Made by a program: the position numbers and the translations under genes. Below, piece after piece: positions 42,049 through 57,586 of a DNA stretch of 64,000 nucleotides. The notes beneath the pieces were generated by a model. The model saw only the letters and a program-made list of their open reading frames with translations, made no database searches and had not been told where the DNA came from. Numbering within the stretch: the first letter of the stretch is position 1; each line of letters starts with the position of its first letter. The DNA is from an uncultured delta proteobacterium (GTDB taxonomy: Bacteria > Desulfobacterota > Binatia > UBA9968), in the NCBI GenBank assembly GCA_963816145.1, contig CAWFJP010000004.1, positions 32,001 through 96,000 on the forward strand. Direction: 5' to 3'.

Positions 42049-42077
42049 TTGACAAGCCATCCGGCTTCGACTAGCTT
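42049..42077 (+). promoter_or_regulatory. sigma70 promoter, leaderless geometry, for RGPP leader 1
   Basis: TTGACA-17-TAGCTT, ATG begins 7 nt after the -10; no SD. Confidence 0.75.
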
Positions 42078-42083
42078 CAAACC

Positions 42084-42380
42084 ATGTCAGTTTTTGGAGC
42101 TCGAACGGCAAACGCTTTCGGCCGCGCCGCTTGCGCCGTCACTTTGCTGTTCTTGTTCTTCCTGCCGCTGCATGTTCATTTTTCGCTGTCGCCGCAGTTG
42201 AGCAACCAATGCAGTTGCTTGCAGGGCGCGCGCGCGCAGTTCGTCGTCGCCGACAAAGCTCCGACGGTTGTGCCGGTCCCGCAATTTGCGGTTCTGCTCG
42301 AACCGCAGGTTTGCGCTTGGAGTTCTACCGCATCGCATTGCCAGTATGTCCGTGGCCCGCCTCTCTCAGTAGCCGTTTAG
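42084..42380 (+). CDS. HxH/CxC-RGPP leader peptide 1 (DUF2946/CruR-like putative arrest peptide), 98 aa
   Basis: FFLPLHVH..QCSCLQGARAQ..VRGPP; paralogous to 42918 and 51382. Confidence 0.8.
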   Translation: MSVFGARTANAFGRAACAVTLLFLFFLPLHVHFSLSPQLSNQCSCLQGARAQFVVADKAPTVVPVPQFAVLLEPQVCAWSSTASHCQYVRGPPLSVAV

Positions 42381-42467
42381 TTCGACAATTTCAGCGATAC
42401 TAGTGTGTTCTCGGTGGCGTGTGCGCAAGCCGAGGCGAGTTGTTATCTATCGAGGGAGGGGCTTGTC

Positions 42468-42737
42468 ATGAACTTTTCTGTTGTTCGGACACCGCTTGTC
42501 GTGGTGTCTGCGGCTTTTACGTTTCTGTTGTTTCTATCGGAGCGAGGTTGGGGGCAAAGTACCGAGCTTGAATCGCTGCGCGCGCTCGTCAAGGGCATGG
42601 AACAGCAGCTGCAACAGGCTTTGCAGCGCATCGATCAGCTGGAAAAAGAAAAAGGGTCGACGTCAGTAAGGGTCGAGCAAGTCGAAAAATCAATTCAGGC
42701 GGTGCAAAGCGCGCCGACGGCGCTCAATCCAGCAATC
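42468..42737 (+). pseudogene. Truncated 5' copy of the OM beta-barrel gene at 51787
   Basis: QSTELESLRA..ALQRIDQLEKEK..VRVEQVEKS.QAVQSAPTALNP matches 51787..53052; similarity stops after NPAI and the frame runs on through unrelated sequence to 42902. Confidence 0.85.
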
Positions 42738-42881
42738 ACACCGATCCAACCGCTTGTCCCGGAGCTATGTCAACGAAACTCTTCTTATTTTACCGCATTA
42801 ACAAGTATTCACCGATGGAGGCCTGAGACAAAAAGCACTCCGGTCGAGGCATCCTCTCAGCTACGCGCGGACTCGTTGAAT

Positions 42882-42910
42882 TTGACAAGTCTTAATTCCT
42901 AGGCTAACAA
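42882..42910 (+). promoter_or_regulatory. sigma70 promoter, leaderless geometry, for RGPP leader 2
   Basis: TTGACA-17-TAACAA, ATG 42918 begins 8 nt after; no SD. Confidence 0.6.
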
Positions 42911-42917
42911 GTCGGCT

Positions 42918-43214
42918 ATGGATCTCGCGCAGCTCTCGTTTCAAATAAAGCATAGACAGCGCTGCGTCGGCGTCTTATTGCTGCTAACCGTCTTTTTCCT
43001 GCTGTTTCATTTTCACCCCGCCACAGCGTCAACCGCACAGATTAATGGCGAATGTACCTGCCTGCATGGTACCCGGACCCAAATCGGAATTGCCCCGGTC
43101 ATGGTCCAGTTACCACTGCCCGTGCTGTTAGTTAGGTATTATTCATTCGAACCTCGGTTTGTGTCATTAAATACTGTTCGTTTCCGATCCATTCGCGGTC
43201 CGCCGGTTTTTTAG
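42918..43214 (+). CDS. HxH/CxC-RGPP leader peptide 2, 98 aa
   Basis: FFLLFHFH..ECTCLHGTRTQ..IRGPP. Confidence 0.8.
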   Translation: MDLAQLSFQIKHRQRCVGVLLLLTVFFLLFHFHPATASTAQINGECTCLHGTRTQIGIAPVMVQLPLPVLLVRYYSFEPRFVSLNTVRFRSIRGPPVF

Positions 43215-43333
43215 TCTCTCCGTCACCGTTTATTTTTCAGCTGTTTCTTGAAGATAGGAGCCACCTCGACCGTCCTCGGTCGCCCGCGGCCCGTTCTCCA
43301 TCCATTGGCCCTTAGCCGATTGGAGGAATATTC

Positions 43334-43819
43334 ATGAATCAAAATGTCTCTGCCGTGGCGCCCCGCTCGTGGATCGATGCCCTCGGCAGCACGTTTTCAA
43401 TTGCCTGCGCCATGCAGTGTTCGGTTTTTCCGCTGCTCATCGGCGTGTTGCCGCTGTTAGGTTTGGGTTTTCTCTTAGGCGACGGCGTCGAGAAAGTCTT
43501 TCTGGGAACCTCAGTCGTGCTCGGCGTCAGCAGCTTCACTTGGGGATTTCGCTACCACCAACGTTTTTACGTCTTTGTTTTTTTGGTTTCGGCGTTAGCC
43601 TTGATCGGCGTCGGACGCTTTTGGGTTGACGACCGATACGAGACTCCAATCGTCGTCGCCGGAACGCTGGTTTTGGCCGCAGGCCATTTCCTCAATCGGC
43701 GACTATGCCGTCTTTGCGCCGAGTGCGACCGCCATGGAAGCGCGTCCGGCTCCCATGTCGCAAGCCATATGAGCACTGTCTCCGTTGCCAACGAAAGGAA
43801 CAACGATCATGAAGTCTAA
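43334..43819 (+). CDS. MerC-domain membrane protein
   Basis: DALG..SIACAMQC..P, four TM helices, GH.LNRRLC..C; SD GGAGG. Confidence 0.75.
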   Translation: MNQNVSAVAPRSWIDALGSTFSIACAMQCSVFPLLIGVLPLLGLGFLLGDGVEKVFLGTSVVLGVSSFTWGFRYHQRFYVFVFLVSALALIGVGRFWVDDRYETPIVVAGTLVLAAGHFLNRRLCRLCAECDRHGSASGSHVASHMSTVSVANERNNDHEV

Positions 43820-44312
43820 GTTGATATTAGCTTTACTTTGTATCGGCCTGATCTCCCTGGGTTCACCCGCGGTGCATGTCTGCCGGATTATTCCCGGCTG
43901 GAGTGCGATTACCGTTGCTGGCGCTGCCAATGCTGCGGAAAAGATTCCGTCGCTTACCTGGGATAATCTCCGCAGGCTCAACCCGCAGTCGGGCAAAATG
44001 CCGGCGGACTTGAAGAAGCACGATGGTAACGTTGTGCGAGTTCCAGGTTTTATCATCCCGCTCGAAGACAATGACCAGGAAGTTTCAGAGTTTCTCCTCG
44101 TGCCCTACCCGTTGGCGTGCATTCATGTGCCGGCTCCGCCGCCCAATCAAATTGTCCATGTGAAAATGGAGAAGGGGAAGAAGGTTCCTTTCGATTTTTA
44201 CGCGCCGGTTTGGGCGCAAGGACGGCTCAAGATTCAACACGAGCAAAACATGTACACCGACACGTCGTACTTCATGAGCGGTCTCTCGATAGAACCGTAC
44301 CGAGAACGATAG
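43809..44312 (+). CDS. DUF3299 family protein (ZrgD-like)
   Basis: VRVPGFIIPLE, EFLLVPY..ACIHVPAPPPNQIVHV. Confidence 0.88.
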   Translation: MKSKLILALLCIGLISLGSPAVHVCRIIPGWSAITVAGAANAAEKIPSLTWDNLRRLNPQSGKMPADLKKHDGNVVRVPGFIIPLEDNDQEVSEFLLVPYPLACIHVPAPPPNQIVHVKMEKGKKVPFDFYAPVWAQGRLKIQHEQNMYTDTSYFMSGLSIEPYRER

Positions 44313-44321
44313 GAGTGAGCC

Positions 44322-44891
44322 ATGTTCTATAAGACATTGTTAATTTCGGCACTCGGCATCTTTGCGCTGGGCGTTAATAAAGGAACCGCAGCTGAACAGC
44401 GCCATGCCGAAGCTCATGTGCACGGCATGGCGGAAATCAACATCGTAGTCGAAGGCAAGAGAGTTGTTGTGGAATTCCACACGCCCTCGGAAGGTCTAAT
44501 GGGTTTTGAGCATGAAGCCAAGACTGACGCAGAAAAGAAAAAACGTGACGCGGCAATGAAAATCGTCAACCAGCGGTCTAACGAACTGATCGTTTTCGAC
44601 AAACGAAGCGCTTGCAAATCGCGTAGTGCTACAGCTCGGATCGCGCGCGGTGAGGACCACGATACTAAAGACAAAACGCACGCGGCGGAAAATCAAAAGA
44701 TCAGCGGCGAGCACAGCGAACTCCAAGCCGTGTACCAATTTGAGTGTGATCGGTCGCCGCTAGGGACCAAAGTGAGTTTTGGCGTCTCGAAGCTGTTTCC
44801 TGACATTCACGAGATCAAAGTACAGATCTTGACCGACACCAAGCAAACCGGAGTAACGATCAAGAACGACAAAGGGAACGTCGAGCTTTAA
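44322..44891 (+). CDS. zrgA: DUF2796 / ZrgA-like periplasmic zinc-binding protein
   Basis: Signal peptide, AHVHG, GFEH, HSE...Y.F.C. Confidence 0.82.
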   Translation: MFYKTLLISALGIFALGVNKGTAAEQRHAEAHVHGMAEINIVVEGKRVVVEFHTPSEGLMGFEHEAKTDAEKKKRDAAMKIVNQRSNELIVFDKRSACKSRSATARIARGEDHDTKDKTHAAENQKISGEHSELQAVYQFECDRSPLGTKVSFGVSKLFPDIHEIKVQILTDTKQTGVTIKNDKGNVEL

Positions 44892-44897
44892 CCGGCT

Positions 44898-45575
44898 ATG
44901 GATTACGCCGTTGACATCGAGCAATTGATTTTTTCCTACCGTGGATCGAAGGCCGTGCTGCGTATTCCCGCTCTTACGATCGCCAAGGGTGAAAAAATTT
45001 TCCTCCATGGACCGAGCGGCAGCGGCAAAACCACGCTGCTCGGAATTCTCGCCGGTGTTCTCAGGGCGACCGAAGGACAGGTGACTATCTTGGGGCAAGA
45101 TCTCGCTCGAATGTCGGGACCCCGCCGCGATGCCCTTCGCGGTTCGCACATCGGTTACATCTTTCAGATGTTCAATCTAATTCCTTATCTCAATGTGCTG
45201 GAAAACATCATCCTGCCCTGCCGCATCAGCCCGGAACGCCAACGACGCTTGAACGGCCGATCGCAACACGATGAAGCCAAGAAATTAGCGGACCGATTGG
45301 GGATCGGGCCGATTGTAAGCGACAACGTCATCGATCTGAGCGTCGGCCAGCAGCAACGGGTGGCGGCGGCGCGCGCCTTGATGGGCGCTCCTGAGCTGAT
45401 CATCGCCGATGAACCGACATCGTCGTTGGACGAAGATCATCGCGAGGGATTTCTTCAACTGTTGTTCGATCAGTGCCGCGAGATCGGCTCGACGTTGATT
45501 TTTGTCAGCCACGATAGACGGATGATGCCGCTCTTCGATCGCGCCGTGTCGTTAGCAGAGATCAATAAGGTTTAA
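44898..45575 (+). CDS. ABC transporter ATP-binding protein (ZrgB-like)
   Basis: GPSGSGKT, LSVGQQQRVAAARAL, ADEPTSSLD, VSHD. Confidence 0.92.
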   Translation: MDYAVDIEQLIFSYRGSKAVLRIPALTIAKGEKIFLHGPSGSGKTTLLGILAGVLRATEGQVTILGQDLARMSGPRRDALRGSHIGYIFQMFNLIPYLNVLENIILPCRISPERQRRLNGRSQHDEAKKLADRLGIGPIVSDNVIDLSVGQQQRVAAARALMGAPELIIADEPTSSLDEDHREGFLQLLFDQCREIGSTLIFVSHDRRMMPLFDRAVSLAEINKV

Positions 45576-45576
45576 C

Positions 45577-46842
45577 ATGTTTCTGCTCTCGCTCGCATAC
45601 CGCTCATTGGCCAATCGCAAACTGACGACGATCGTTACATTGTTGTCGCTTGGACTGAGCGTCAGCCTTTGGATTGGGATCGAACAGATTCGTAGCGGCG
45701 CGCGCGAAAGTTTTTCCAACACTATCAGCCAAACCGATCTGATCGTCGGCGCGCGCGGCAGTCCGATCCAGTTGCTGCTCTACACGGTATTTCACATCGG
45801 TACGCCGACGGCGAACGTCACTTACAAGTCATACAAGGAAATCAAAGATCACAAAGCGGTGCTGTGGACGATTCCCATCTCTCTGGGCGACAGCCACCGC
45901 GGATACCGCGTAGTTGGCACAAACGAAGATTTTTACCAGCATTACCGTTACCGGCAAGACCAGCAATTGGAGTTTGGCCAAGGGCGCGCGCCGGCTGGGA
46001 TCTTTGATGTGGCGCTCGGCAGCGATGTGGCGCAGGCGTTGCGCTACGGTCTGGGAGCAAAGATCGTTGTCACTCACGGCATCACCAACAGCCGCGGCAT
46101 CATGGATCACGACGATAAGCCGTTTACAGTTGTCGGTGTCTTGCGGCCCACGCGCACCCCGATCGACCGTTCTCTTTATGTGACACTCGAAGGTATCGAA
46201 GCGATGCACATCGACTGGAAACAGGGCGCGCCGCCGATCAAAGGACAAGAAACCCCGGCGGAGAAAATCAAAAAGGAAGACATTAAAATTGACCAGATCA
46301 CGGCGTTTTTTCTGCGCACGAAGTCACGGGTGCAAACCCTCGCGCTGCAACGGGAGATCACCAATTTCCCTGACGAGCCGCTGACGGCGGTGGTTCCCGG
46401 TGTCGCTCTGAGCGAGCTTTGGACCGGTATCAGTTACGGCGAGCAAGTGCTCCAAGTGGTGGCGATCTTTGTCGTGATCGTCGGACTCCTCGGCATGTTG
46501 ATGTCGCTCTACACATCTTTGAACGAGCGGCGGCGGGAAATTGCCATTCTCAGGGCCTTGGGAGTTGGGCCGGTGAAAGTAATTTCCCTCTTGATATTCG
46601 AGTCGGGGCTGCTGACCTTAATCGGTACGGTTTTGGGGGTGGCTATAGTTTATGGTTCTGTTGCATTGTTGCAGCCGACGATTGAGCAGCAATTCGGCCT
46701 GCACATCCCGCTTAGGCCGCTCACGGGCACGCAGTATAGTTACCTGGTTTATGTAGTCTTTGGCGGAATTGCCGTCGGTCTCATTCCAGCCTGGAAAGCT
46801 TACCGAAATGCCCTCTCAGATGGCTTAAGCGTGCGAATTTAG
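45577..46842 (+). CDS. FtsX/MacB-type ABC permease (ZrgC-like)
   Basis: TDLIVGARG..QLLLY, PISLGDSHRGYRVVGT, ERRREIAILRALG. Confidence 0.9.
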   Translation: MFLLSLAYRSLANRKLTTIVTLLSLGLSVSLWIGIEQIRSGARESFSNTISQTDLIVGARGSPIQLLLYTVFHIGTPTANVTYKSYKEIKDHKAVLWTIPISLGDSHRGYRVVGTNEDFYQHYRYRQDQQLEFGQGRAPAGIFDVALGSDVAQALRYGLGAKIVVTHGITNSRGIMDHDDKPFTVVGVLRPTRTPIDRSLYVTLEGIEAMHIDWKQGAPPIKGQETPAEKIKKEDIKIDQITAFFLRTKSRVQTLALQREITNFPDEPLTAVVPGVALSELWTGISYGEQVLQVVAIFVVIVGLLGMLMSLYTSLNERRREIAILRALGVGPVKVISLLIFESGLLTLIGTVLGVAIVYGSVALLQPTIEQQFGLHIPLRPLTGTQYSYLVYVVFGGIAVGLIPAWKAYRNALSDGLSVRI

Positions 46843-46945
46843 ATTTGCAGCGATGGGGATAGTGAAAAAAACTTCCTTGATGACGCTGCCGGTGCGGTAT
46901 CGTCGGAGGGTATACGAGTCTTGCTTATGATTTTGGAGATTTGAA

Positions 46946-47437
46946 ATGGAAAAACAAGCCGTCATTTTATTTCTGCTGTTAAGTTTGTTGCTCATCTCGA
47001 AAGGAATGAATTTTGCCGACGAATCCATTCCTGTTCGGCAACCGATTCGCGATAAGTTGGCGAACGCAGCGCGCCATTTTCTCGGGATGCCATATCGCTG
47101 GGGAGGGATGTCGGAGCGTCGCGGCATGGATTGCTCGGGGTTGGTCAAAGCGCTATTTGCCACATTACACATTGATTTGCCCAGGACTTCCCGCGAACAA
47201 TATCACGCCGGGGAAAATGTTGCTGTCGAAAACCTGCAAGCCGGCGACCTGCTCTTCTTTTCATCTGACGGCGTGACGCCGAATCACGTCGGTCTTTATA
47301 TCGGCGACAATCGTTTTGTTCACGCCGAGAAAAAAGCCGGACACGTCATCATCACGGAACTGAATCAGCCTTGGTACGTTAAGCATTTCCTGGGAGCACG
47401 CCGTATTGTGGAATCGGAAGAAGGGCGACGCACATGA
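46946..47437 (+). CDS. NlpC/P60 peptidoglycan hydrolase
   Basis: GMPYRWGG, DCSG, LPRTS, GDLLFF, HVGLY..FVHA. Confidence 0.93.
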   Translation: MEKQAVILFLLLSLLLISKGMNFADESIPVRQPIRDKLANAARHFLGMPYRWGGMSERRGMDCSGLVKALFATLHIDLPRTSREQYHAGENVAVENLQAGDLLFFSSDGVTPNHVGLYIGDNRFVHAEKKAGHVIITELNQPWYVKHFLGARRIVESEEGRRT

Positions 47438-47570
47438 AACAAATGGATCGGTTTTAGTGTTACGTGATCTATGTTTCAAGCCTGACGATAATACAGCATA
47501 GACAGGAATCGCGGCCTGGGAGAAGTTTAGGGAAAGTCAAAAAAGTAAACCCTCTGGAGACGCGCTGCGA

Positions 47571-47870
47571 GTGGCATTCGGATTTAGATTAATTACTTTC
47601 GCTGGGCTTTGCTTAATTTGGTCGGTGCACATCGCTTGGGCGGCCGGCTCTTGTCATATCCACCCGCTGGGAGTCGATATCAAGGAAGCCGAATCGAGCG
47701 CATTCGAGTGGTACAGCTCTCTTGAGCAGTGCGAGGTGGCGAATAAAAAGTTTTTCGGCGGAAGAGGAATGTGTCATTGTTTTCCTGACGGATTTATCAA
47801 CGGAGAAGGCGATGACTGGCGGTCTCGGCTGAGAGATCACGGCACGCTGCAAGAGCCGCCGTCGGAATGA
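47571..47870 (+). CDS. Small secreted Cys/His-containing hypothetical protein
   Basis: Signal peptide AWA, CHIHP, C, CHC; SD GGAG. Confidence 0.5.
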   Translation: MAFGFRLITFAGLCLIWSVHIAWAAGSCHIHPLGVDIKEAESSAFEWYSSLEQCEVANKKFFGGRGMCHCFPDGFINGEGDDWRSRLRDHGTLQEPPSE

Positions 47871-47938
47871 TCATTGATGTCACAAACGCACGGTCGTCTA
47901 CCCTGGGACCGGATGCTGACGGAACGCCTCGATGGAAA

Positions 47939-48556
47939 ATGAAGCACCCATCTAGCATGACCTTCATGCTTGGAATCGGATTGATCGCTGCATTATTCGG
48001 TGCGGTCGCTTGCACGCCAGCAATTGTCACTTCTCTACCGCAGACCGTTCGTCGAATCGCCGTTCTTCCACCCTTCCAACGTGGCGCCGTCAATGCGCGC
48101 ACTGACGCAGACAACGGTCTACCTGTTTTACAAAACATGACTGTGGGAGATGTTCTCGCCCATCAAGCACGCATCAGACTTGCGGAAAAAGGATTCGAGG
48201 TTCTCAGTCCTGGTGCAGTGAAAGTGGCAACCAAGGATCGTGTGCCCACTAGCCCAGAGATGGCGGCGCAGATTCTGCGCGAGGCCAACCTTGACGCGGT
48301 GGCGCTGTACATCGAAATACGGCGTTGGGACCCAACGCCAAGCGAGAGGGGAATGAAAGCCGACGGTGTAATCGTCGCGTTAGACGTGACGATGGTCGAT
48401 CCGAGGACAGGCGCGATATTGTGGCAGCTACACCGTCCATCCCGGCCGGTTCCGCTTTACGGAGTCGTATTGACCGGGCAAGCTAATGTCTTCGTGGCCG
48501 AGACGATCATGCGGGAGGCGCTTGCATTGGTTAAGTTGTCGCAGCCGAATGGTTGA
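47939..48556 (+). CDS. Lipoprotein (DUF799/CsgG-like alpha/beta fold suspected)
   Basis: Lipobox AVA-C, RIAVLPP, L.EKGF, EIRRW, MVDP.TG.ILW. Confidence 0.6.
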   Translation: MKHPSSMTFMLGIGLIAALFGAVACTPAIVTSLPQTVRRIAVLPPFQRGAVNARTDADNGLPVLQNMTVGDVLAHQARIRLAEKGFEVLSPGAVKVATKDRVPTSPEMAAQILREANLDAVALYIEIRRWDPTPSERGMKADGVIVALDVTMVDPRTGAILWQLHRPSRPVPLYGVVLTGQANVFVAETIMREALALVKLSQPNG

Positions 48557-48620
48557 ACATACGTCCATTAGCCGCTAATGGACCATGCTTTATGAACTCA
48601 ACACAGGTTATCCATGGGAC

Positions 48621-51186
48621 TCAATGGCCGGTGTTTTCTTCGGAGCCTGAAAGTTTATTAAGGCGCCGCTGGATCTCGTCGAATTGCTGGCGCAGCGCTT
48701 CGTACTGCTGGCGGAGCATTGCCAAATCCCGTTGATCCTGGGATTTCTCCTTCGTCTTGGAATCGCTATCTCCAGCCAATACAACTTCAGGCACCAACTC
48801 ACGCACGACAGTTTCGTAGCGACGAGCAGCGCCATCATCGCGCCCAGCGGCTGCGACGGCATAGTGATAGAGCGCTGTCCCGGCCCGACGAGCAGCGGTA
48901 ATTTCCGGCGCTGTCGGCCAAAGCGGATCGGCAGCGCCTGCCAAGCGCGTTTCAAGAATATCATAAAACGAAGCTAGACTTTCTCCGGTGAACCAATCCG
49001 CGTTGCCAAATGTGGCGGCGACACGGGTCAAGCGCGGAGCCAGGAATTCAATCAGCGGGCGATCGTCGGTATTAAGCGGAGCGCTGCCGAACAAATCAGC
49101 TACAGCTCTGAGATTTCCGGCGTAGAGCATCGACAGACCTCGCGGAGTCGAAAGAACCGGATCCTTGCTCCATTCGGGCAGTCGCAACGCGCGCTCACGG
49201 ATGCGCGCGAGGTCAAGCCGTCGCGATGTTAGCTGGCCGACCAAACCAACCACTGGAAGCTCCGCATAAAAATCATCGCGCCAGAGACTCACTTGCGGAA
49301 ATACAGCAAGAAACGTTCGCGCGATAATATCAAATTCCCCGCGGGTAAGTTGATAGAGCGGCAGCCACTGACAAAAGATTCCGTCCGGCGCGAGACGACG
49401 GGCCGCGGTTTCATACATCTCTCGCGCGTAAAGGTTTCCAGTCCCCGGATTCCAGGGTACGAACAGGTCGGAGACAATCACGTCGAAACTGTCTCGGCTG
49501 GTCGCGAGATAGCGGCGACCGTCGTCGAGCACGAGGCGTACATCGGAGCGCTCCAATAATTTTGCGTTCCAAGACGAGAAGTGCGCGCGCGCCGCGTTCG
49601 CGACTTCCGGCACGAGTTCAACAACCGTTGTATCTTCTACGCCAAGGGCAGGTGCTGCGCTTGCGCTGATGCCGGTGGCAAGGCCGATGAAGGCAACACG
49701 GCGCGGATTGGGATGGAGCAGCAACGGGAGCAGCCCCTGGCGCCGCTCGCCAACCGCTGCCGCGCTGCGCCCCAGTACGTAGTAGTTATCGAGCCGGAGT
49801 TGAAGATCTCCGCCCGCCTCCGTCACAGCGACAACGCCGCTCGCTCCCTCGATCATCTCGCGTAACGTTTCGCCTTTCGAACCGAGATGTACGAGCGGCG
49901 CTCGCAGTGGATTGGCAATCAACATGGCGAGGAGAACAACGTAAGCGAGCGGTCTAAACCGGCTTTGCGACGGCGCAAGTAGATCAGCGAGCAGAACATA
50001 CACCACCGCCGCGACGAGCAAGCTCCCGCGAACGCCGAGCGCCGGGATTATTAAGAAGCCCATGGCAACCGCGCCGAGGACTCCACCGAAAAGGTTTGCC
50101 GCCGAAAGATCTCCCAGCGGACGAGCTACACTTATCCGCTCGCCCCAGGCGGCCCAGAGGGCGGGCAAAACCATTCCGGACGCAATCGCCGCGGGGCCAA
50201 CTGTTATTGCGGTAAGTGCTATGATCCGTAAAACATATTCCAGCAACCCAGCGCGCATGCCCAAATAGGTGAGCCCATCCGTCCAGTACACGAAGAGCCA
50301 CAGCCCGCCGATGGTTGCACCCGCTGCAACCACCAACCCCATCGCTGCGACGGTATTCGGTGCAGCGCGACGCAGTAGAAACGCCGCCAGTGCCGCGCCC
50401 GCCGCGATCGCTAAAAGAAAAACAAGGATCACCGTCGTGAAGGAATAGACTGAGTTATGTAAAACTTGGGCAAAGAGATGTGTCCAAAGCACTTCGAGCC
50501 CGAGGCCCAAGGCGCCCGTACCGGCGGCGACGAGCCGCAAACGCGCGCGTTGCGGCGGCGGAAACATGGCTTTCCTTGACCGATTCGGTTATGGATGCTT
50601 TCTCACGGCGATCGCCGATCGCGATTGCCAGGAGTCCGGCCAGCAAACTGGCGCCGGCGGCGATGACGTAGCTCGCCCGCACACCGACGAAGATGGGAAG
50701 GCCAAAGCCCGCGGCTGCCGCGCCGAGCACAGCGCCTGCGGTGTTGATGGCGTAAAGGAGACCGCCGCGTTGTCCCACAGTCTCGACGCTGGCAAGAGCT
50801 TGGGCAAGAGTCGGAAGCGTTGCACCTAGACAGAATGTTGTCGGTAGAATCGCCAACGCGACGGCAGCAACGCGTCCCGCGAGTCCAATGTTGGAAAGCC
50901 AAACCTGAGCATTATCGAGGGCCAGTACCCGGAAAATAGTGAGCGACCACAGTGCGCCTCCTGCGGCGCCAAATTCGAGATATCCGTACAATCGCACTGG
51001 TCGTGACGAAGCCCGTCGCGCATAGACTGAGCCAAGGCCCAAGCCGGCAAAATAGCAGGCGAGGACGGTCGCGGCGGTGAAAGCGGTTGTGCCAAGGACG
51101 AGCCCGGCCGAGCGCATCCATAGCATTTCCAAGGCCAGAGCGGCTGCGCCTGAAAGAGCGAAACAGAGCCAAAGCATAAACCGCAT
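48621..51186 (-). CDS. Fused MFS-like/spermidine synthase family membrane protein, frameshifted at ~50550
   Basis: Two repeats of SG..LxLExLW..LG/ LYA.NT.G.V.G TM blocks, then IGLATGIS, VELVPEV, DDGRRYL, FDVIVSD, QWLPLYQ. Confidence 0.85.
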
Positions 51187-51345
51187 GCTACGTTGATTTA
51201 TGTTGTACCACAGCAAATGTAAACTAGATGACTCATCAACGGCCAAAAAATATGTTTCTGTTCGACTCCTCGCTGCCTGTTGTGTCATCTTTCGGAAAGA
51301 TTGATCTCAATAGCAAGTCGGTTACGGCTGCAGCGCAATATTCTG

Positions 51346-51374
51346 TTGACTTCGCGAAGCACATTCGTTAGGTT
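51346..51374 (+). promoter_or_regulatory. sigma70 promoter, leaderless geometry, for RGPP leader 3
   Basis: TTGACT-17-TAGGTT, GTG 51382 begins 8 nt after. Confidence 0.7.
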
Positions 51375-51381
51375 AAACGGC

Positions 51382-51678
51382 GTGGTTCTTTCAGGAATGA
51401 GAAGAGGATTTTCTATTCGCCGTCTCGTTACTGCGACGACTTTAGTATTTGTTTTCTTTCTACCATTTCATTTTCATCTTTCCGTTTCCGCGCAAATCAG
51501 TAAAGAGTGCACTTGCCTCCAAGGTGTTCGAACTCAGCTGGGTGCGATCGCGAATGTTACGGCGGTCGTCCAGCAGCTTTGGATTGCACGCGTTGCCAAT
51601 CAAGCGGTTTCTATTTGGGCCGAAGACAGATTGGAACAGCAGCATGTCCGAGGGCCACCCTTCCGAGCCTCCCTGTAG
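51382..51678 (+). CDS. HxH/CxC-RGPP leader peptide 3, 98 aa from GTG (alternative ATG 51397)
   Basis: FFLPFHFH..ECTCLQGVRTQ..VRGPP. Confidence 0.8.
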   Translation: MVLSGMRRGFSIRRLVTATTLVFVFFLPFHFHLSVSAQISKECTCLQGVRTQLGAIANVTAVVQQLWIARVANQAVSIWAEDRLEQQHVRGPPFRASL

Positions 51679-51786
51679 TTCTTTGTTCGAAATCCGAATC
51701 GTAAAATAACTACGTCCGTTTCCCTTCTATTCTCACCTCTGAATCATAGGAGGGTGACGGAATGGTATTGGAGGGGGGGTAGCAAA

Positions 51787-53052
51787 ATGTTTCTATTATC
51801 AGCGAGGCTGCAACGGGTCGCGGCATTCGTTCTGGTGAGTCTATTGATTGGGTTTCCATCGGCTGCCCTGGCGCAAAGTTCGGAGTTGGAAGCGCTGCGC
51901 GCCACGGTCAAAAACATGGAGCAGCAAATGCAAAAGGCGTTGCAGCGTATCGATCAATTGGAAAAGGAAAAAACTTCGACAACCGTGCGCGTCGAGCAAG
52001 TCGAAAAATCAGTTCAGGCGGTGCAGAGCGCGCCCACAGCGCTAAACCCCTCGATGGGGCTGGTGCTTGATGCGAATGTCCAAAATCTTGGCAAAGCGGG
52101 CGGCAATTTTGATTTCCGCAGCGCCGAGCTGGGAATCGCGGCTTCGGTGGACCCATTCGCCAGAATGTACAGTTTCTTCAACGGCTCAAAGGATGGTGTG
52201 GAGGTCGATGAAGCGGCAGCGATCACTTCTTCGCTGCCATGGAACTTGACGGCCAAGGGCGGCCGATTCCTCGCCGACTTCGGGCGCTTGCCTAAAGTTC
52301 ACGAGCATGAGCTGCCGTTTGTGACTCAGCCGCTATCGATACAACGAATGGTCGGCGGTGAAACCCAGGCGGACGGCGTAGAAATGAATTATCTGTTCCC
52401 GACGCCGTTTTATCTGCGGGCCACGTTGGGAGGAATGAACAAGATCGGCGAGGATAACGATCAGGTAAGCAATTCCAAGCCGCGCTCGTGGAGCCGATTC
52501 ACCTATCTCGGCAGGCTCAACACCTATTTTGATCTAACTGATAATCAAAGCGTTGAAGTTGGCACGAGCATGGCCTATACGCCAGACCTGCGTCTGGCAG
52601 GTGATCCCAGCGGCGGCTATCGCGCGCTTAACGGCATCGATGTGACTTATCGCTACCAGCCCCTCAACAGCGCCGTTTACCAGGGTGTGACTTGGGGTAG
52701 TGAATGGTATACCAACAGCGAGCGGATACCATTTGATACCGACGCGAGTAGTTCTGCCAAACGACAACGGTCATACGGCGGCTATAGTTACGTTGAGGCG
52801 AAGCTGAACAAGAACTGGTCGACCGGATTCCAAGTCGACTACGCTCCCATGGTCGAGACCCCGGCACAGCGGACCATGAGTTACACACCTTTCGTGACCT
52901 GGAATCTCAGCGAATTTAATCGGCTGCGCTTTCAGTACAGTTACTTGAACAACAATTTTCGCGGGGCGGACAAAGCTGAAAACGGCAATCAATTTTTCCT
53001 CCAATGGACGACGGTCATCGGTGCTCATACCCATGGTTTTCTCGGTCGCTAA
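51787..53052 (+). CDS. Outer-membrane beta-barrel protein of the zinc-regulated receptor/porin type
   Basis: Signal peptide, coiled coil, ASVDPF, KGGRF..DFG..HEHELPF, SEFNRLR.QY, C-terminal IGAHTHGF; upstream of a Zn/Mn ABC system. Confidence 0.8.
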   Translation: MFLLSARLQRVAAFVLVSLLIGFPSAALAQSSELEALRATVKNMEQQMQKALQRIDQLEKEKTSTTVRVEQVEKSVQAVQSAPTALNPSMGLVLDANVQNLGKAGGNFDFRSAELGIAASVDPFARMYSFFNGSKDGVEVDEAAAITSSLPWNLTAKGGRFLADFGRLPKVHEHELPFVTQPLSIQRMVGGETQADGVEMNYLFPTPFYLRATLGGMNKIGEDNDQVSNSKPRSWSRFTYLGRLNTYFDLTDNQSVEVGTSMAYTPDLRLAGDPSGGYRALNGIDVTYRYQPLNSAVYQGVTWGSEWYTNSERIPFDTDASSSAKRQRSYGGYSYVEAKLNKNWSTGFQVDYAPMVETPAQRTMSYTPFVTWNLSEFNRLRFQYSYLNNNFRGADKAENGNQFFLQWTTVIGAHTHGFLGR

Positions 53053-53079: not shown

Positions 53080-54009
53080 ATGATTAAAAAATTAACGCGA
53101 GGAATAAACTGGAAAACATTTCTCTTCGCTTTTACATTTCTTTCCTTACAAACGGGTTTGGTATTCGCACAGCAGATTCGTGTAGTGGCGACCTTTCCTG
53201 ATCTCGCCGACATAACCCGGCAGATCGGCAAAGAGCTGGTCACTGTGGATAGTCTGGCCACGGGAATCGAAGACCCTCACGGGGTTCCCATGAAACCGAG
53301 CTTTGTGCCTCGATTAAACAGAGCTGACGTAATAGTCCTCACGGGTTTGGATGACGAGCATTCATGGCTTCCCGCGTTACTGGAAGTGGCAGCCAATTCA
53401 AAAATTCTTCTCGGCCGTCCGGGCTACATAGATTGTTCTGTTGGAGTACCGGTGCTTGAAGCGCCGACTCTCGTGGACCGCTCGGAGGGAGATATGCACC
53501 CGAAGGGGAATCCGCACTTCATGTTAGATCCTGTCAAAGCGAAAATCGCAGCGCGGAACATCGCTTCTGGCCTTTCCCGGAATTTTCCTCAACATCAGCA
53601 GGTTTTTGACAAAAATCTCAAAGCCTATGTTGCGGAACTGGATAGTTGGATTGCACGCTGGGAAAAGCTGGCGATGCCTCTCCGGGGTATCAAATATGTA
53701 GAATATCATCCCCAATGGATATATTTCGCCGATCGATTCGGTATGAAACGGATTGGGAGTGTTGAACTGAAGCCAGGGATAGAACCAACGCCTAATCATA
53801 TCGTGGAATTGGTGCAGACAATCAAACAAGAGAAACCTCAGTTACTCCTTTACGGTGCTCAGAACCCGCGACTTCCGCAACAAATCTCAGCTGAGACAGG
53901 TATCAAGGTTCTTCGTCTTTACAGTAACGCGGGAGCGCAACCTGAGACGGATAGCTATATAAAATGGATCGATTATACTGTGCGTACTCTAGTTCAGGCG
54001 GTTAGTTAG
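53080..54009 (+). CDS. znuA: Zn/Mn ABC transporter substrate-binding protein (cluster A-I)
   Basis: EDPH, GDMHPKGNPH, YH..W.YF..RFG, ELKPGIEPT..H. Confidence 0.85.
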   Translation: MIKKLTRGINWKTFLFAFTFLSLQTGLVFAQQIRVVATFPDLADITRQIGKELVTVDSLATGIEDPHGVPMKPSFVPRLNRADVIVLTGLDDEHSWLPALLEVAANSKILLGRPGYIDCSVGVPVLEAPTLVDRSEGDMHPKGNPHFMLDPVKAKIAARNIASGLSRNFPQHQQVFDKNLKAYVAELDSWIARWEKLAMPLRGIKYVEYHPQWIYFADRFGMKRIGSVELKPGIEPTPNHIVELVQTIKQEKPQLLLYGAQNPRLPQQISAETGIKVLRLYSNAGAQPETDSYIKWIDYTVRTLVQAVS

Positions 54010-54011
54010 AC

Positions 54012-54746
54012 TTGATAAAACAGGATCGAGATGTCGACGCAATCGCAGGCGCCAGAGGTGAAGAGTCGGAAAAAAGCTCTTCGCCTCTGGTTTCTCTTGA
54101 AAATGTAAACCTGGGCTATGATTCCACCCCGGTGGTTCGAGACGTCAATCTCGCTATCTTTCCGGGGAGCCTCATCGGTCTGGCCGGGCCCAACGGTTCA
54201 GGCAAGACCACGCTGTTCAGAACAATTCTAGGGTTACTGCCGCCTGTTAGCGGAACTCTTTCCCGCAGTTGTCCCTTGTCAAACTTTGGCTACGTGCCGC
54301 AAAGCGCAGCGCTCGATCCGCAATTTCCGCTGAGCGCGTCAGAGGTCGTGGAGATGGGCGCCTACGGCCGTGTCCGCCCATATCAGTTTTTACCGGCGAG
54401 TGAAAAGGCGCGAGTCAAAGAAGTTTTGCAACAAATTGGCTTGCCGCAGCTCGCGGCGAGATCGTTTTTTTCTTTGTCCGGTGGCCAAAAACAACGGATG
54501 CTGATTGCGCGCGCGTTGATGGTAAATCCAAAGATCATGATTTTAGACGAGCCGCTTTCTGGAGTGGACGAAGAGTCCCGGCGCAGCATCGCCGATCTAT
54601 TAACAAAACTCACCCGCGAAAAGGGATTGGCGGTGTTTTTTTCCAGCCACGACCTTGAGATGGTGCAACGCGTGGCCGATGGTATCGTGCGCATCGATAA
54701 AGGACAGATTTGGTTGGACGAAAGAAAGGCACGACTTCATCCATGA
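54012..54746 (+). CDS. znuC: Metal ABC transporter ATP-binding protein
   Basis: GPNGSGKT, GYVPQ, LSGGQKQR, LDEP, SHD. Confidence 0.88.
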   Translation: MIKQDRDVDAIAGARGEESEKSSSPLVSLENVNLGYDSTPVVRDVNLAIFPGSLIGLAGPNGSGKTTLFRTILGLLPPVSGTLSRSCPLSNFGYVPQSAALDPQFPLSASEVVEMGAYGRVRPYQFLPASEKARVKEVLQQIGLPQLAARSFFSLSGGQKQRMLIARALMVNPKIMILDEPLSGVDEESRRSIADLLTKLTREKGLAVFFSSHDLEMVQRVADGIVRIDKGQIWLDERKARLHP

Positions 54747-56188
54747 GCGCTCTATTTGAAATCATAAGCCCCTCATATTTGCTCTTTCCAGCACTCGTGG
54801 GCACGATGATCATGGGCTTGGTTTGTCCACTGGTGGGATCGTTCCTGGTTCTTAGACGCACGGTGTTTCTTGGATTAACCCTTCCGGAAATTGCTGCCGC
54901 TGGAGTCGCTTTTACGTTCTGGATGCAGCAGGCGGGCCTCTTGCCACAGATGGGACAAAGCGAAAGAGGTGTTGCGATGGTGGGGTCGCTCGTCTTTACG
55001 TTCCTCGGCATGGGGCTGCTCGGTTATCTGGAGCAGCGCGGCAAAGGCCCAGCGGAAGGCCGCCTCGCCGCGGCATACGCATTTGCCGGCGCTCTAACGA
55101 TCTTGTTCATGGTTTTTAATCCCGCGGGTCAGATAGAAGTTCTCAATCTACTGAAGGGTGAAGTGATCGCACTATCCAAAGGAGAACTGCGACTTGTAGT
55201 TGCAGTGTTTGGCTTAGTTTTATTGGCGATGGTTTTCTTCCGCCGTGAGTTTCTTCTGACTTCTTTCGATCGGGACTTAGCATTCTTGCTCAAAGGCCGC
55301 CAAGTGATTTGGGACATATTGCTTTATCTTCTTGCCGGCTTAATCATCGCCGTCGGGGTGATCATCGCGGGACCGCTGCTGATTTTCGGATTCCTGGTCT
55401 TGCCGGCGCTGGCAGCTAAACCTTTGGTCCACCGGATGAGTTCTTTCCTTATGCTTTCTTCAGCGTTGGGTATGATGATGGCATTTTTCGGTTTTTACAG
55501 CTCCGTCAGGTTGGATCTTCCTTTAGGACCAACAGACGTGGCTCTGGGATGCTGCCTGATCTTTCTGGCGTACGGAATCCGGCGGATTTCAACCAGAGGT
55601 TTTGCGGCAACGATCCTGACATGCGTTGCTATTTCCGTTTCCGCTTGCAGCACGCCAGTCCCTCCACCACCCATTCCTGAGGCTAAAGCGATTCATGCAG
55701 ATCTAGTCTGGTTGGCCAAGGTCAAAAATAGCACTGCGTTGCCGCTGATATTGCCGGAGTCCAATCCGCTGCGATCGTTGGCCGAAATGGCCGGCAAGCT
55801 TGCCCCCGAGACACGCGCCAACGTGATGGATTTGCTGCGTCAAAATCTCCAAACTGAACTCGCGCAACAAGGCTTCCAGATTTTTCTACCTGAGGCCAAG
55901 GATGTGCGCTTTCCGCCGTTTGCCGCCGACGCCGTTAGCGCCGCCCGGGTGGCGCGCGAGGGGAATCTTTCGGGGTTGATTTTCGTCTGTGAGATTTGGC
56001 GCTGGGAAGGCGAAACGCAAAAGTTCGTGCGCGCTCTGGTCGATTTCAAACTCGTCCGCATCGATGACGGCACCGTCGTCTGGGAGCGCCGCGTGCAACG
56101 CGCGGTTCCCACCCCGAGCGCGACCAATCTCGGTCAGGCATCGACCGATGCCGTAAAGGCAATTATCCACGACTTATTCGCGGGATGA
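54743..56188 (+). CDS. znuB: Metal ABC permease (ABC-3) fused to a C-terminal lipoprotein-like domain
   Basis: N-terminal about 290 aa ABC-3 permease (G.FLVLRR, SFDRDLA, LDLPLGP); C-terminal VSA-C and a domain resembling 47939..48556. Confidence 0.8.
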   Translation: MSALFEIISPSYLLFPALVGTMIMGLVCPLVGSFLVLRRTVFLGLTLPEIAAAGVAFTFWMQQAGLLPQMGQSERGVAMVGSLVFTFLGMGLLGYLEQRGKGPAEGRLAAAYAFAGALTILFMVFNPAGQIEVLNLLKGEVIALSKGELRLVVAVFGLVLLAMVFFRREFLLTSFDRDLAFLLKGRQVIWDILLYLLAGLIIAVGVIIAGPLLIFGFLVLPALAAKPLVHRMSSFLMLSSALGMMMAFFGFYSSVRLDLPLGPTDVALGCCLIFLAYGIRRISTRGFAATILTCVAISVSACSTPVPPPPIPEAKAIHADLVWLAKVKNSTALPLILPESNPLRSLAEMAGKLAPETRANVMDLLRQNLQTELAQQGFQIFLPEAKDVRFPPFAADAVSAARVAREGNLSGLIFVCEIWRWEGETQKFVRALVDFKLVRIDDGTVVWERRVQRAVPTPSATNLGQASTDAVKAIIHDLFAG

Positions 56189-56950
56189 AAAGAGGATGTC
56201 ACGTCTGCTACATGGATTTATAGCCTCGCCAGCGTTGTTTTGGTGAGTCTGCTGTCGCTTGTCGGTATCGCTTTTATCTCACTGAGCGAATTGCGTTTGA
56301 AGCAGCTGATATTCGCCATGGTTAGCCTCGCTGTCGGCAGTTTGTTCGGCGACGCATTCATCCATCTGTTGCCCAAGTCATTTGAGCAGAGGCCGGAGAA
56401 GATGCAAGTGTCGCTCTCAATTCTTGCCGGAATCTTTACATTTTTTATTTTGGAAAAATTTCTTCTTTGGCGTCACAAGCACGTGCTGGAATCCGAGCAT
56501 GCGATCCACCCCGTCGGGTACATGAATCTACTGGCAGACGGCGTGCACAACTTTATTGACGGCGCGATTATCGGAGCGTCTTATCTGGTCAGCTATCAGA
56601 TTGGCGTGGCGACTACCCTGGCGGTGATTTTTCACGAGATCCCGCATGAGCTCGGAAACTTCTTCGTTTTGCTCTATGCCGGATTCACCAAGACGAAAGC
56701 GCTCTTGTTCAACTTTATATCGGCATTGTTCGCGATTTTGGGAACTGTAATTTCGTTGTCCGTCGGTTCTCGGGTGCAACAATTTGCTTCGCTGATGCTG
56801 CCGATCGCCGCCGGCGGTTTTATTTACATCGCCGGTTCCGATCTAGTTCCCGAGCTGAATAAAGAGGTGCAACTATCCAAATCGATCATGCAGATGATCG
56901 CTATAGGAACCGGCGTTGGATTAATGCTGTTATTGACGCTGCTGGAATGA
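56185..56950 (+). CDS. ZIP family metal transporter (5' end probably frameshifted in an A-run at ~56188)
   Basis: GDAFIHLLP, DGVHNFIDG, HEIPHELG, GFIYIAGSDLVPEL; in-frame upstream TWIYSLASV lacks a start unless one A is removed after ATG 56185. Confidence 0.9.
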
Positions 56951-56962
56951 GGTTATCGCACT

Positions 56963-57586
56963 ATGGCTCACCGTCGTCCTCCGCTTATGCGCGCATTGCA
57001 GCTCAATACCGCGGTTCTGGTCGTAGAGATCGCCGCCGGAATTGGCTCTAACAGTTTTAGCCTCATCATGGATGGCATCCATAATCTTTCCGACGAAGTC
57101 GCGCTTGTGCTGCTGGTGCTAGCCTATAGTCTTAGAGCGGGTCTTTCAGGCAAGCTGTTGCGCTACGCAAACCTGTTCAACTCAGTCGGACTTTTAGCGA
57201 TCTCGGTCTTCCTGACCTTGCGTGTTGTTGAGCGCCTGTCTTACCCCGTCGAAGTGGTCGGCGTTGTCCCGATCATAGCCGGTTTGATCGGAGCAGCAGC
57301 CAACTGGGGCGTCGCTCGCGTGTTGCGCGAAGCCGCCAAAGAGGACGTGGCCATTCGTCTAGCTTACGTCCACAATCTCGGCGACACTTTGGTTTCGCTC
57401 ATTCCGGTAGCAGCTGGCATTTTCATTTTTGCCTCGGGAAATTTTCTATTTGACTCGTTGTTCGCCTTGCTGATTGCCGCCGTTGTGGTGGTTACGACGC
57501 TGCAAGCCGTCGTGGGGTCCCACCAAGAGCTGCTGTGGCCGGAGAATGTTTCGTGCGGGCATGCGGAAGTTGATCTAAAGATTTGA
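56963..57586 (+). CDS. Cation diffusion facilitator (CDF) lacking the cytoplasmic C-terminal domain
   Basis: S.SL..DG.HNLSD (TM2 HxxxD), HNLGD (TM5); only 207 aa. Confidence 0.8.
   Translation: MAHRRPPLMRALQLNTAVLVVEIAAGIGSNSFSLIMDGIHNLSDEVALVLLVLAYSLRAGLSGKLLRYANLFNSVGLLAISVFLTLRVVERLSYPVEVVGVVPIIAGLIGAAANWGVARVLREAAKEDVAIRLAYVHNLGDTLVSLIPVAAGIFIFASGNFLFDSLFALLIAAVVVVTTLQAVVGSHQELLWPENVSCGHAEVDLKI

Follow-up and report, generated by a model that had tools for sequence, protein, structure and literature searches.

In Escherichia coli the exported leader SecM carries an arrest site a few codons before its stop codon, and arrest at this site exposes the Shine-Dalgarno (SD) sequence belonging to the next gene, secA. 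The SecM motif is RAGP, the arrest is released by pulling force, the mRNA has a normal 5' untranslated region (UTR), and the system monitors export, not metal. Robust arrest that is not relieved by EF-P has been described for the motifs RAPP and RGPP, which proteomes avoid and which are over-represented close to the C-terminus of small secretory or membrane proteins encoded upstream of sec and metal-homeostasis genes (PMC12992588). In vitro, translation of the Bordetella pertussis DUF2946 protein CruR (Bp2923) is arrested when its two Pro codons occupy the P and A sites (PMC12992588). In CruR, 45 intervening residues lie between CXXC and RAPP, a distance that is kept within 1-2 residues across more than 2000 DUF2946 proteins and whose alteration affects regulation; the stalled state is ON, metal brings about release, and copper sensing is proposed to be independent of the signal peptide (PMC9426467). 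In CutF of Rhodobacter capsulatus, also a DUF2946 protein, it is the copper-bound chain that stalls, sensing takes place in the periplasm during export, and in the published model disulfide formation provides a pulling force (10.1101/2025.02.05.636593). Here we describe three paralogous open reading frames (ORFs), leaders 1, 2 and 3, in a stretch of 64,000 nt (the window) of contig CAWFJP010000004.1 (GCA_963816145.1), which belongs to an uncultured Binatia lineage labelled as a delta proteobacterium and whose genome assembly comprises 7.8 Mb and is 99.5% complete. Each of these ORFs is probably a regulatory leader peptide, or upstream ORF (uORF), of the CruR/CutF kind, stalling its own ribosome at a C-terminal R-[G/A]-P-P motif and modulated by metal through a His/Cys site.

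The near-terminal arrest site and the exposure of an SD sequence are what the leaders would have in common with SecM, which differs in its RAGP motif, its export signal and its normal 5' UTR. The likeness to CruR would extend to a small uORF, predicted to be exported, that opens a metal-uptake operon, a Cys motif, a fixed linker (45 residues in CruR, 44 here), a C-terminal RAPP-type motif with a short tail, a C-rich 3' end, and an uptake system that metal should switch off (PMC9426467). Unlike CruR, which has CXXC in a chain of 145 aa, responds to copper, controls a TonB-dependent transporter and acts through Rho-dependent termination, the leader family has CxC together with an invariant LPxHxH in about 98 aa, precedes a TonB-independent barrel with ZnuABC, Zrg and ZIP genes, and is predicted to act through a long-range helix that sequesters the SD (PMC9426467). 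CutF would resemble the family in its exported nascent chain, its Cys motif, its Pro-rich C-terminal stall site, and a stem-loop that hides the next gene's SD until a stalled ribosome opens it; it differs in its CXXXC and PPP motifs and its dependence on EF-P, and its copper-induced stall turns on a detoxifying oxidase, a polarity opposite to the needs of uptake (10.1101/2025.02.05.636593). ApdA, ApdP and a Streptomyces lividans set, all small secretory or membrane proteins, likewise have RAPP or RGPP a few residues before the stop codon and are encoded upstream of the gene that each is thought to control; in one of them, SLIV_16130, Cys and His residues are conserved and the downstream gene is metal-related (PMC12992588). 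Beyond the motif these proteins have no sequence relation to the leader family. The stalling activity that a first-pass annotation of the window had ascribed to RAPP and RGPP is in the published record, where the downstream genes comprise sec/yidC, DsbA, thioredoxin and, for metal homeostasis, TonB receptors, YcnI, PCuAC and PepSY; zinc is not mentioned in the main text of that paper (PMC12992588).

The first-pass annotation had reported three ORFs of 98 aa sharing FFLxxHxH, CxCLxGxRxQ and [VI]RGPP, and they are found at exactly the positions it gave (Table 1), with all of the motifs present in their alignment. Each consists of 98 codons and a stop codon, which is included in the coordinates. 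Leader 3 starts with GTG and has an alternative in-frame ATG at 51397, 15 nt downstream. Pairwise identities in the three-sequence alignment are 33-36%, and the residues invariant in all three are R14, L21, F25-F26-L27, H30, H32, Q38, C43, C45, L46, G48, R50, Q52, V63 and R90-G91-P92-P93. These are the only leader copies in the genome to which the window belongs.

A profile of leaders 1-3, the search that the annotation had proposed, recovers a conserved family: 18 of 24 genomes of the same genus have full-length relatives, as do three of five genomes of a second (sister) family, with best E-values down to 1.4e-36, and 11 genomes of a third family of the order have none. An even sample of 300 other genomes of the phylum, in which only 16 candidates per genome were scored, gave no match at E <= 1e-3. 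The 23-sequence profile A2, applied to 1.84 billion representative proteins, matches 145 clusters at E <= 1e-3, and 128 of these reach E <= 1e-10. Word-index searches for homologues are weak for a protein this short, returning five matches for member P0003 and only itself for P0152. In public sources the members are unnamed or hypothetical proteins. The leader ORFs are real genes forming a narrow conserved family. An origin as chance ORFs or non-coding DNA was ruled out: the reading frames stay open and the motifs persist across genera.

The locus counts given below refer to 45 distinct full-length members with flanking DNA, 44 of which have downstream sequence; both counts, like the tally of genomes with relatives, include one member from an unpublished genome (L020/L053, genome G005), without which each is lower by one, on which no conclusion rests, and which was left out of alignments A2-A5 and of the 38-sequence RNA alignment. 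Members are 96-108 aa long. By inspection, the N-terminus has one or two Arg residues followed by about 15-16 uncharged hydrophobic residues ending in L-P-L-H-x-H. In A2, columns L27, H30, H32, C43, C45, R90, P92 and P93 are invariant and P28, L29 and R50 nearly so; C-x-C is present in 23 of 23 sequences, CxxC being confined to the outliers P0152 and P0153. A logo of 107 representatives, anchored on the first Cys and picked for a spacing of 47 so that its motif columns are fixed by construction, reads R-R-(hydrophobic)x13-L-P-L-H-x-H, 10-13 residues, K-E-C-x-C-x-x-G-x-R-T-Q, the linker, and [I/V]-R-A/G-P-P. The terminal motif R-[G/A]-P-P is found in 45/45 loci (RAPP in 28, RGPP in 17) and is followed by a tail of 1-6 aa in 44 of the 45, the tail of L051 having 14 aa. 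All motifs are carried by 130 of the 145 cluster representatives (RAPP 104, RGPP 22, RSPP 3, RDPP 1), and the 15 that lack one feature are fragments, frameshifted forms, the two CxxCH variants and one LGPP.

The distance from the first Cys to the Arg of the terminal motif is 47 residues (44 intervening) in 44/45 members and 48 in the exception; among the 130 representatives it is 47 in 118, 45 in seven, 48 in four and 50 in one. The distance from HxH to CxC, at 12-16 residues, is not fixed. The linker between Cys and Arg is the least conserved part of the protein, its 34-column core having a mean entropy of 3.2 bits compared with 0.2 for the motif, with one frequent Pro within it. A spacer of constant length and free sequence would be expected if, at one point during synthesis, it matters where the Cys residues lie with respect to the ribosome; it would not be expected of a folded domain. 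This pattern bears on the very unlikely alternative that the product is a stable small exported or membrane-anchored metal-binding protein, a chaperone or accessory subunit of the barrel/ZnuABC importer, in which RxPP has a structural or sorting role. Invariant His and Cys residues, an export-type N-terminus and a constant partnership with the barrel gene would suit such a protein, and CutF was itself first described as a factor for CutO maturation (PMC8456105). Against a stable product stand the combination of a hypervariable linker core with a spacer of constant 44-residue length, the arrest activity of the motif and its avoidance in proteomes (PMC12992588), the occurrence of the same peptide type ahead of three unrelated first genes (barrel, MerC-like and DUF3299), and the codon choice in the tail.

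That codon choice is apparent from the predicted structure of the mRNA between leader and next gene. In the minimum free energy (MFE) folds for leaders 1 and 3, base pairs join the R-G-P-P codons and the CU-rich tail to the SD and start of the following gene, and a stable hairpin is nested within this pairing, with z-scores of -2.97 (leader 3) and -1.68. Opening the SD behind leader 1 costs 20.0 kcal/mol in the free mRNA and 6.9 kcal/mol with a parked ribosome, the native cost being matched by none of 20 synonymous recodings; the corresponding costs behind leader 3 are 14.1 and 7.1 kcal/mol. In the consensus fold of three MerC-type members, the partner of the S-I-R-G/A-P-P codons is GGC..GCCGAUUGGA, a stretch directly ahead of the SD and reaching into it. 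For 37 of the 44 members with downstream sequence, the main pairing partner of the SD is the final ~36 nt of the leader; over all 44, the mean cost of opening the SD and start is 13.5 kcal/mol for the native mRNA, 9.1 kcal/mol with a ribosome at the first Pro codon in the P site, 10.7 kcal/mol with shuffled tails and 10.5 kcal/mol with synonymously recoded tails. Parking the ribosome lowers the cost by 4.4 kcal/mol on average, and by at least 3 kcal/mol in 27/44. The native cost exceeds the mean of the recodings in 34/44, and in 14/44 none of 20 recodings reaches it, a tuning of the tail to the next SD that a stable protein would not call for. When each tail is paired with its own SD and with unrelated ones, in a test that allows register shifts, its own duplex is better than the mean in 32/40 and in the top 10% in 15/40, comparisons that are not independent trials, the members being kin. 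These opening energies and the own-versus-foreign pairing test took the place of a simple measure of whether the SD is unpaired.

In the segment made up of the motif and the tail, C accounts for 45% of the nucleotides and G for 23%, and the sequence directly past the stop codon is U/C-rich over 30 nt; such a C-rich tail would suit a Rho loading site, as in CruR. A scan for intrinsic terminators finds a hairpin followed by a U-tract in 5/44 only, and visual inspection adds further members with a U-rich stretch behind the hairpin. Behind leader 3, a mini-ORF of six codons (ATG..TAG, 51763-51783) overlaps the SD of the barrel gene and has an SD-like GGAGGG of its own in the 3' arm of the hairpin; it may be due to chance.

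The leaders are preceded by a uniform promoter layout. Nearly every member has TTGACA, a 17-nt spacer and a TAnnnn hexamer (TAGGTT, TATCAn and others), with the start codon 5-8 nt further on. From the end of the -35 element to the start codon there are 28-31 nt in 35/45 members and exactly 30 in 23; in the remaining 10/45 the simple rule used chose a second TTGAC or an earlier in-frame start. The chosen start is GTG in 20 members, including leader 3. A consensus promoter scan did not call the promoters of leaders 1 and 3, in the case of leader 1 because its -10 element matches at only 3/6 positions. No SD precedes the leader start codons, and the leader mRNAs should be leaderless because there is no room for an SD between the -10 element and the start.

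A DNA-binding repressor was sought in the same sequences. No conserved palindrome was seen in or around the leader promoters, and no Zur-box-like site (TGTTAT-N5-ATAACA, with at most two mismatches) lies near the leaders, the one match in the window, at 14708, being at chance level. The genome has two matches to the Fur family (PF01475) with identical scores, and the one that was examined, a protein of 131 aa, is closest to the PerR/Fur models, with the Zur model the weakest at 21 bits. There is no recognisable Zur in the genome, the ArsR/SmtB, MerR and MarR families not having been searched. The lack of a Zur-like paralogue and of a Zur box near the leaders fits control after transcription starts. 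The proposal of the first-pass annotation that the leaders act in place of a repressor is supported as far as the missing Zur-like Fur paralogue and the missing Zur box are concerned, whereas the absence of a repressor is itself something that we infer.

All 44 members with downstream sequence head a gene type that is present in the zinc clusters of the window. The first downstream gene is the barrel in 39/44, followed by ZnuA wherever the sequence suffices, then ZnuC/ZnuB and, in several loci, ZIP and CDF; it is MerC-like in 3/44, the start of a DUF3299-ZrgA-ABC-permease unit in 1/44, and NlpC-like in 1/44, where a second leader and a barrel follow. The annotation had anticipated such an enrichment, and its gene assignments in the window (a truncated barrel behind leader 1, a MerC/Zrg unit behind leader 2, and barrel-ZnuACB-ZIP-CDF behind leader 3) agree with the profile matches and with the barrel alignment. 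The best NCBIfam names of the transport genes are AztC/AztA/AztB, ZrgA, ZupT and ZitB, all below the equivalog cut-offs, with the manganese MntC/MntA models as next-best matches. Because these best names are zinc-labelled, zinc is the likeliest metal, an assignment made by gene association.

It is distinctly unlikely that the peptide arrests in response to something other than zinc, whether another metal such as copper, the thiol or disulfide state of CxC, or export capacity as in monitors of the SecM type. All characterised DUF2946 members respond to copper (PMC9426467, 10.1101/2025.02.05.636593), disulfide formation supplies the pulling force in the CutF model (10.1101/2025.02.05.636593), and the ZnuA family includes Mn and Fe binders, in keeping with the second-best matches of MntC models. 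Nevertheless, every unit associated with the leaders has zinc-labelled best matches (ZrgA, AztABC, ZupT-like ZIP and ZitB-like CDF), and the same genome has a different RAPP leader before a Cox11/SCO1 copper-chaperone cluster.

Returning to control by zinc, the features above allow the following sequence of events to be proposed. A constitutive sigma-70-type promoter, the elements of which are present in the sequence, would give rise to a leaderless mRNA beginning at the leader start codon, and the basic and hydrophobic N-terminus of the product would engage an export pathway. Going by the published work on RAPP and RGPP, the ribosome would then arrest with the first Pro codon in the P site. 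The ribosome exit tunnel holds roughly 30-40 residues. At arrest, CxC is 47-49 residues from the P-site residue and would therefore be just out of the tunnel. In a force-profile study, SecM arrest was reportedly released when a small domain folded in a zinc-dependent manner close to the tunnel exit. The arrested ribosome would cover the arrest codons and the first codons of the tail, freeing the SD so that the zinc-uptake genes are translated, and might in addition keep Rho off the C-rich tail. Sufficient zinc would be bound by His30, His32, Cys43 and Cys45, the resulting folding or pulling would free the arrest, and the helix would re-form, turning the operon off. This is the polarity of CruR, with the stall as the on state and metal as the off signal, and it suits an uptake system. 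In a genome with no recognisable Zur, the three paralogues may in this manner control three units. From the conservation, spacing and context we infer the arrest, its release by metal, the binding of metal, the compartment in which it is sensed and the direction of control.

Several observations weigh against this proposal. The probability that the SD is unpaired hardly moves, being 0.22 in the free mRNA, 0.30 with a stalled ribosome, 0.33 with a terminating ribosome and 0.26 with a shuffled tail; the G-rich SD finds other C-rich partners. RNAalifold gave no consensus structure for a MAFFT alignment of 38 leader-end and intergenic sequences, because the intergenic hairpins are misaligned. Four members of the MerC and Zrg types (W2, L037, L054 and L051) show no drop in opening energy. 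In about 14/44 the SD pairs with nucleotides at +12 to +26 from the Arg codon, some of which fall beyond the assumed ribosome footprint. Zinc is identified from the neighbouring genes only, and sites of His and Cys also bind copper and other metals. As to expression, parts of the stretch are present in 20 of the 24 metagenome runs listed (soil, wetland and plant), mostly or all in small shares, and the RNA trace of the leaders is limited to one weak instance in the single metatranscriptome run among four runs aligned to the stretch, a 188-nt contig of identical sequence at leader 3 covering 51526-51713, in a type of library that can hold DNA; stretches lacking coverage carry no meaning. The polarity of CutF, in which metal induces the stall (10.1101/2025.02.05.636593), is opposite to that proposed here. 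The Pfam DUF2946 model (PF11162) gives no match at E <= 10 for leaders 1-3 and four other core members, and a profile comparison of the family with a DUF2946-like leader yields a probability of 15.9% over 29 columns.

Since CutF stalls when metal is bound, the direction of control might also be the other one. The same arrest device could be wired in reverse, with metal inducing or stabilising the stall or with the stalled ribosome keeping the next gene off, because under translational coupling only ribosomes that reach the stop codon would open the SD helix; an excess of zinc would then prolong the stall and shut off uptake. We consider this unlikely. CutF, the other characterised DUF2946 member, does stall with copper bound (10.1101/2025.02.05.636593), the pairing nucleotides of the ~14/44 members just mentioned are at or beyond the edge of a parked ribosome, and a terminating ribosome leaves the SD unpaired with a mean probability similar to that of a stalled one. 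On the other hand, in about 24/44 the partner of the SD consists of the R-G/A-P-P codons and the next one or two codons, inside the ribosome footprint, a parked ribosome does cut the average cost of opening the SD, and CruR, which also controls uptake, uses the stall as ON and metal for release (PMC9426467). Release by metal, the direction proposed above, is retained here.

As to DUF2946, with which the first-pass annotation had suggested a comparison, membership of the leaders was dropped: the model misses the core family and the motif is CxC, not CXXC. The gathering score of PF11162 is 23.7 bits; the most distant profile matches, P0152 and P0153 (LPLHYH, CxxCH, SRAPP), reach 20.1 and 16.5 bits, below the cut-off, and a six-frame search of the genome with PF11162 returns one weak unrelated match of 15.8 bits. 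Of the traits of DUF2946 leaders, the family has the C-terminal RAPP/RGPP, the fixed spacing from Cys to RxPP and the position as first gene of a metal operon, and lacks CXXC. In another family of the phylum, a 94-aa ORF with a sub-threshold DUF2946 match (22.2 bits), LLLPALHRAH, CSIC (a CxxC), 45 intervening residues and RAPP plus two residues precedes a homologue of the window barrel (31% identity over 345 aa, E 2e-40), ZnuA and an ABC-3 permease. The leader-barrel-ZnuA module predates the leader family, because a DUF2946-like leader precedes a homologous barrel and ZnuA in this other family, and its leader slot is filled by either the CxxC or the HxH+CxC type. The leader family probably works like CruR and CutF and is probably distant kin of DUF2946; the same layout is claimed and membership is not, because the Pfam model misses the family and the profile comparison is weak. 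In Caulobacter, a DUF2946 protein is listed ahead of the czrCBA zinc/cadmium efflux genes (PMC4176598), which hints that leaders of the DUF2946 type are not confined to copper.

Within the leader-peptide interpretation a more specific proposal can be put forward tentatively: a nascent-chain zinc sensor encoded by a leaderless uORF, with a His2Cys2 site 47 residues from the peptidyl-transferase centre, in which zinc bound co-translationally frees an RGPP/RAPP arrest, used as a three-operon regulon without Zur. If true, zinc-responsive arrest peptides would have their first example here, with the CruR/CutF principle re-tuned to a second metal by a new ligand set and the same ruler kept. Metal sensing by nascent chains would then extend beyond copper, with the distance from ligand to arrest site as the transferable core. 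No zinc-responsive translational arrest system was found in literature searches, which did not cover the supplements of PMC12992588 and PMC9426467, and nothing describing such a leader system was found in the literature linking DUF2946 and zinc; in the literature that was found, zinc homeostasis in bacteria is attributed to regulators that bind DNA, Zur above all. A metal-sensing nascent chain of the RAPP type is already published for copper, and its authors expect wide occurrence (PMC12992588, PMC9426467, 10.1101/2025.02.05.636593). New here would be a family missed by Pfam with another ligand set, its association with zinc uptake, the leaderless arrangement, and a regulon of three paralogues without a visible Zur. 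At 98 aa, with few invariant residues and three natural paralogues before three different first genes, the family is suited to testing, and the differently built RAPP leader before the copper-chaperone cluster offers a natural comparison in the same genome. The present description also gives a name to a gene family so far recorded only as hypothetical proteins and points to the undescribed barrel as a probable zinc entry channel.

Table 1. Coordinates of the leader ORFs, their signals and the genes that follow them in the window. SD, Shine-Dalgarno sequence.
Feature	Coordinates	Strand	Details
Promoter of leader 1	42049..42077	+	TTGACA 42049-42054, 17-nt spacer, TAGCTT 42072-42077; start 6 nt after -10
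Leader peptide 1	42084..42380	+	98 aa; basic/hydrophobic N-terminus, LPLHVH, CSC, 44-residue linker, RGPP, 5-aa tail
RGPP codons of leader 1, predicted arrest site	42351..42362	+	CGT GGC CCG CCT
Internal GC-rich hairpin, leader 1 intergenic region	42410..42434	+	
SD and ATG of truncated barrel gene	42452..42470	+	SD GAGGGAGGGG at 42452-42461
Truncated outer-membrane barrel remnant	42468..42902	+	144 aa; only signal and coiled-coil part left
Promoter of leader 2	42882..42910	+	TTGACA, 17 nt, TAACAA; start 7 nt after -10
Leader peptide 2	42918..43214	+	98 aa; LLFHFH, CTC, linker, RGPP, 2-aa tail
RGPP codons of leader 2	43194..43205	+	
SD and ATG of MerC-like gene	43322..43336	+	SD GGAGGA
MerC-family membrane protein	43334..43819	+	PF03203, E 1.3e-22
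DUF3299 protein	43785..44312	+	PF11736, E 4.2e-32; 'zrgD' of the first-pass annotation
ZrgA-family zinc uptake protein	44322..44891	+	PF10986, E 7.2e-39; NCBIfam ZrgA E 1e-31, below cut-off
ABC ATPase, Zrg-type unit	44898..45575	+	Generic ABC ATPase matches
FtsX/MacB-type permease, Zrg-type unit	45577..46842	+	
Promoter of leader 3	51346..51374	+	TTGACT, 17 nt, TAGGTT; GTG start 7 nt after -10
Leader peptide 3	51382..51678	+	98 aa from GTG; LPFHFH, CTC, linker, RGPP, 5-aa tail
RGPP codons of leader 3	51649..51660	+	CGA GGG CCA CCC
Internal hairpin, leader 3 intergenic region	51716..51760	+	
SD and ATG of barrel gene	51770..51789	+	SD GGAGGGGGGG at 51770-51779
Outer-membrane beta-barrel with N-terminal coiled coil	51787..53052	+	Of no described family; usual first regulated gene (candidate)
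ZnuA-family metal-binding protein	53080..54009	+	PF01297, E 6e-50; best NCBIfam AztC, below cut-off
ABC ATPase (ZnuC/AztA-like)	54012..54746	+	
ABC-3 permease (ZnuB/AztB-like) fused to C-terminal GNA1162-like domain	54710..56188	+	
ZIP-family transporter	56240..56950	+	PF02535, E 4.6e-42; best NCBIfam ZupT
CDF-family transporter	56963..57586	+	PF01545, E 8.6e-18; zinc-labelled best match ZitB-like

The barrel behind leader 3 has no match in Pfam, NCBIfam or the PDB beyond coiled-coil noise. It is a candidate metal entry channel, probably for zinc, of an undescribed family that is also found behind the DUF2946-like leader described above. The remnant behind leader 1 is 82% identical to the N-terminus of this full barrel over 61 aa, with nothing matching beyond. 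The -35 element of the leader 2 promoter (42882-42887) sits within the 3' end of the truncated barrel ORF (region 42405-42917), and because of this position the leader 2-MerC-Zrg unit seems to have displaced the remainder of a leader 1-barrel-ZnuACB operon that was there before. The full barrel-ZnuACB operon persists in relatives whose peptides are leader-1-like.

Leaders in tandem occur at two other loci. In L054 the order is leader, MerC, NlpC, GNA1162-like, second leader and barrel, and in L077 it is leader, NlpC-like ORF, second leader and barrel-ZnuA. In L032, L033 and L043 the barrel, ZnuA and further genes of the operon are broken up into multiple ORFs, and the leader of L043 is frameshifted into two pieces; the splits may be due to indels in the assembly or to genuine decay. 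L035, L036, L039 and L040 have a gene of about 900 aa between ZIP and, where present, CDF, a position at which ZIP is followed directly by CDF in the window. The C-terminal extension of the ABC-3 permease, about 190 aa, is homologous to a separate GNA1162-like lipoprotein ORF at 47867-48556 (28% identity over 132 aa, E 1e-10), and in the relatives L042 and L053 the permease and the extension are separate ORFs.

The second RAPP-terminal small ORF of the genome lies outside the window, on the minus strand of contig C31 at 79004-79438 (equivalent to L096:7005-7400, minus strand), is unrelated to the leader family and has no Pfam match. Its N-terminal segment is hydrophobic and ends in PHRVHH; its other features are a His-rich stretch, a single Cys located 48 residues ahead of RAPP, and a tail of 2 aa. 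The ORF heads a cluster of the copper-chaperone type comprising a BNR-repeat lipoprotein, a redoxin, three CtaG/Cox11-like proteins, SCO1/SenC and a DUF4382 protein. The presence of this different RAPP leader before a copper-chaperone cluster in the same genome suggests that one organism has separate RxPP leaders, and separate sensors, for separate metals.

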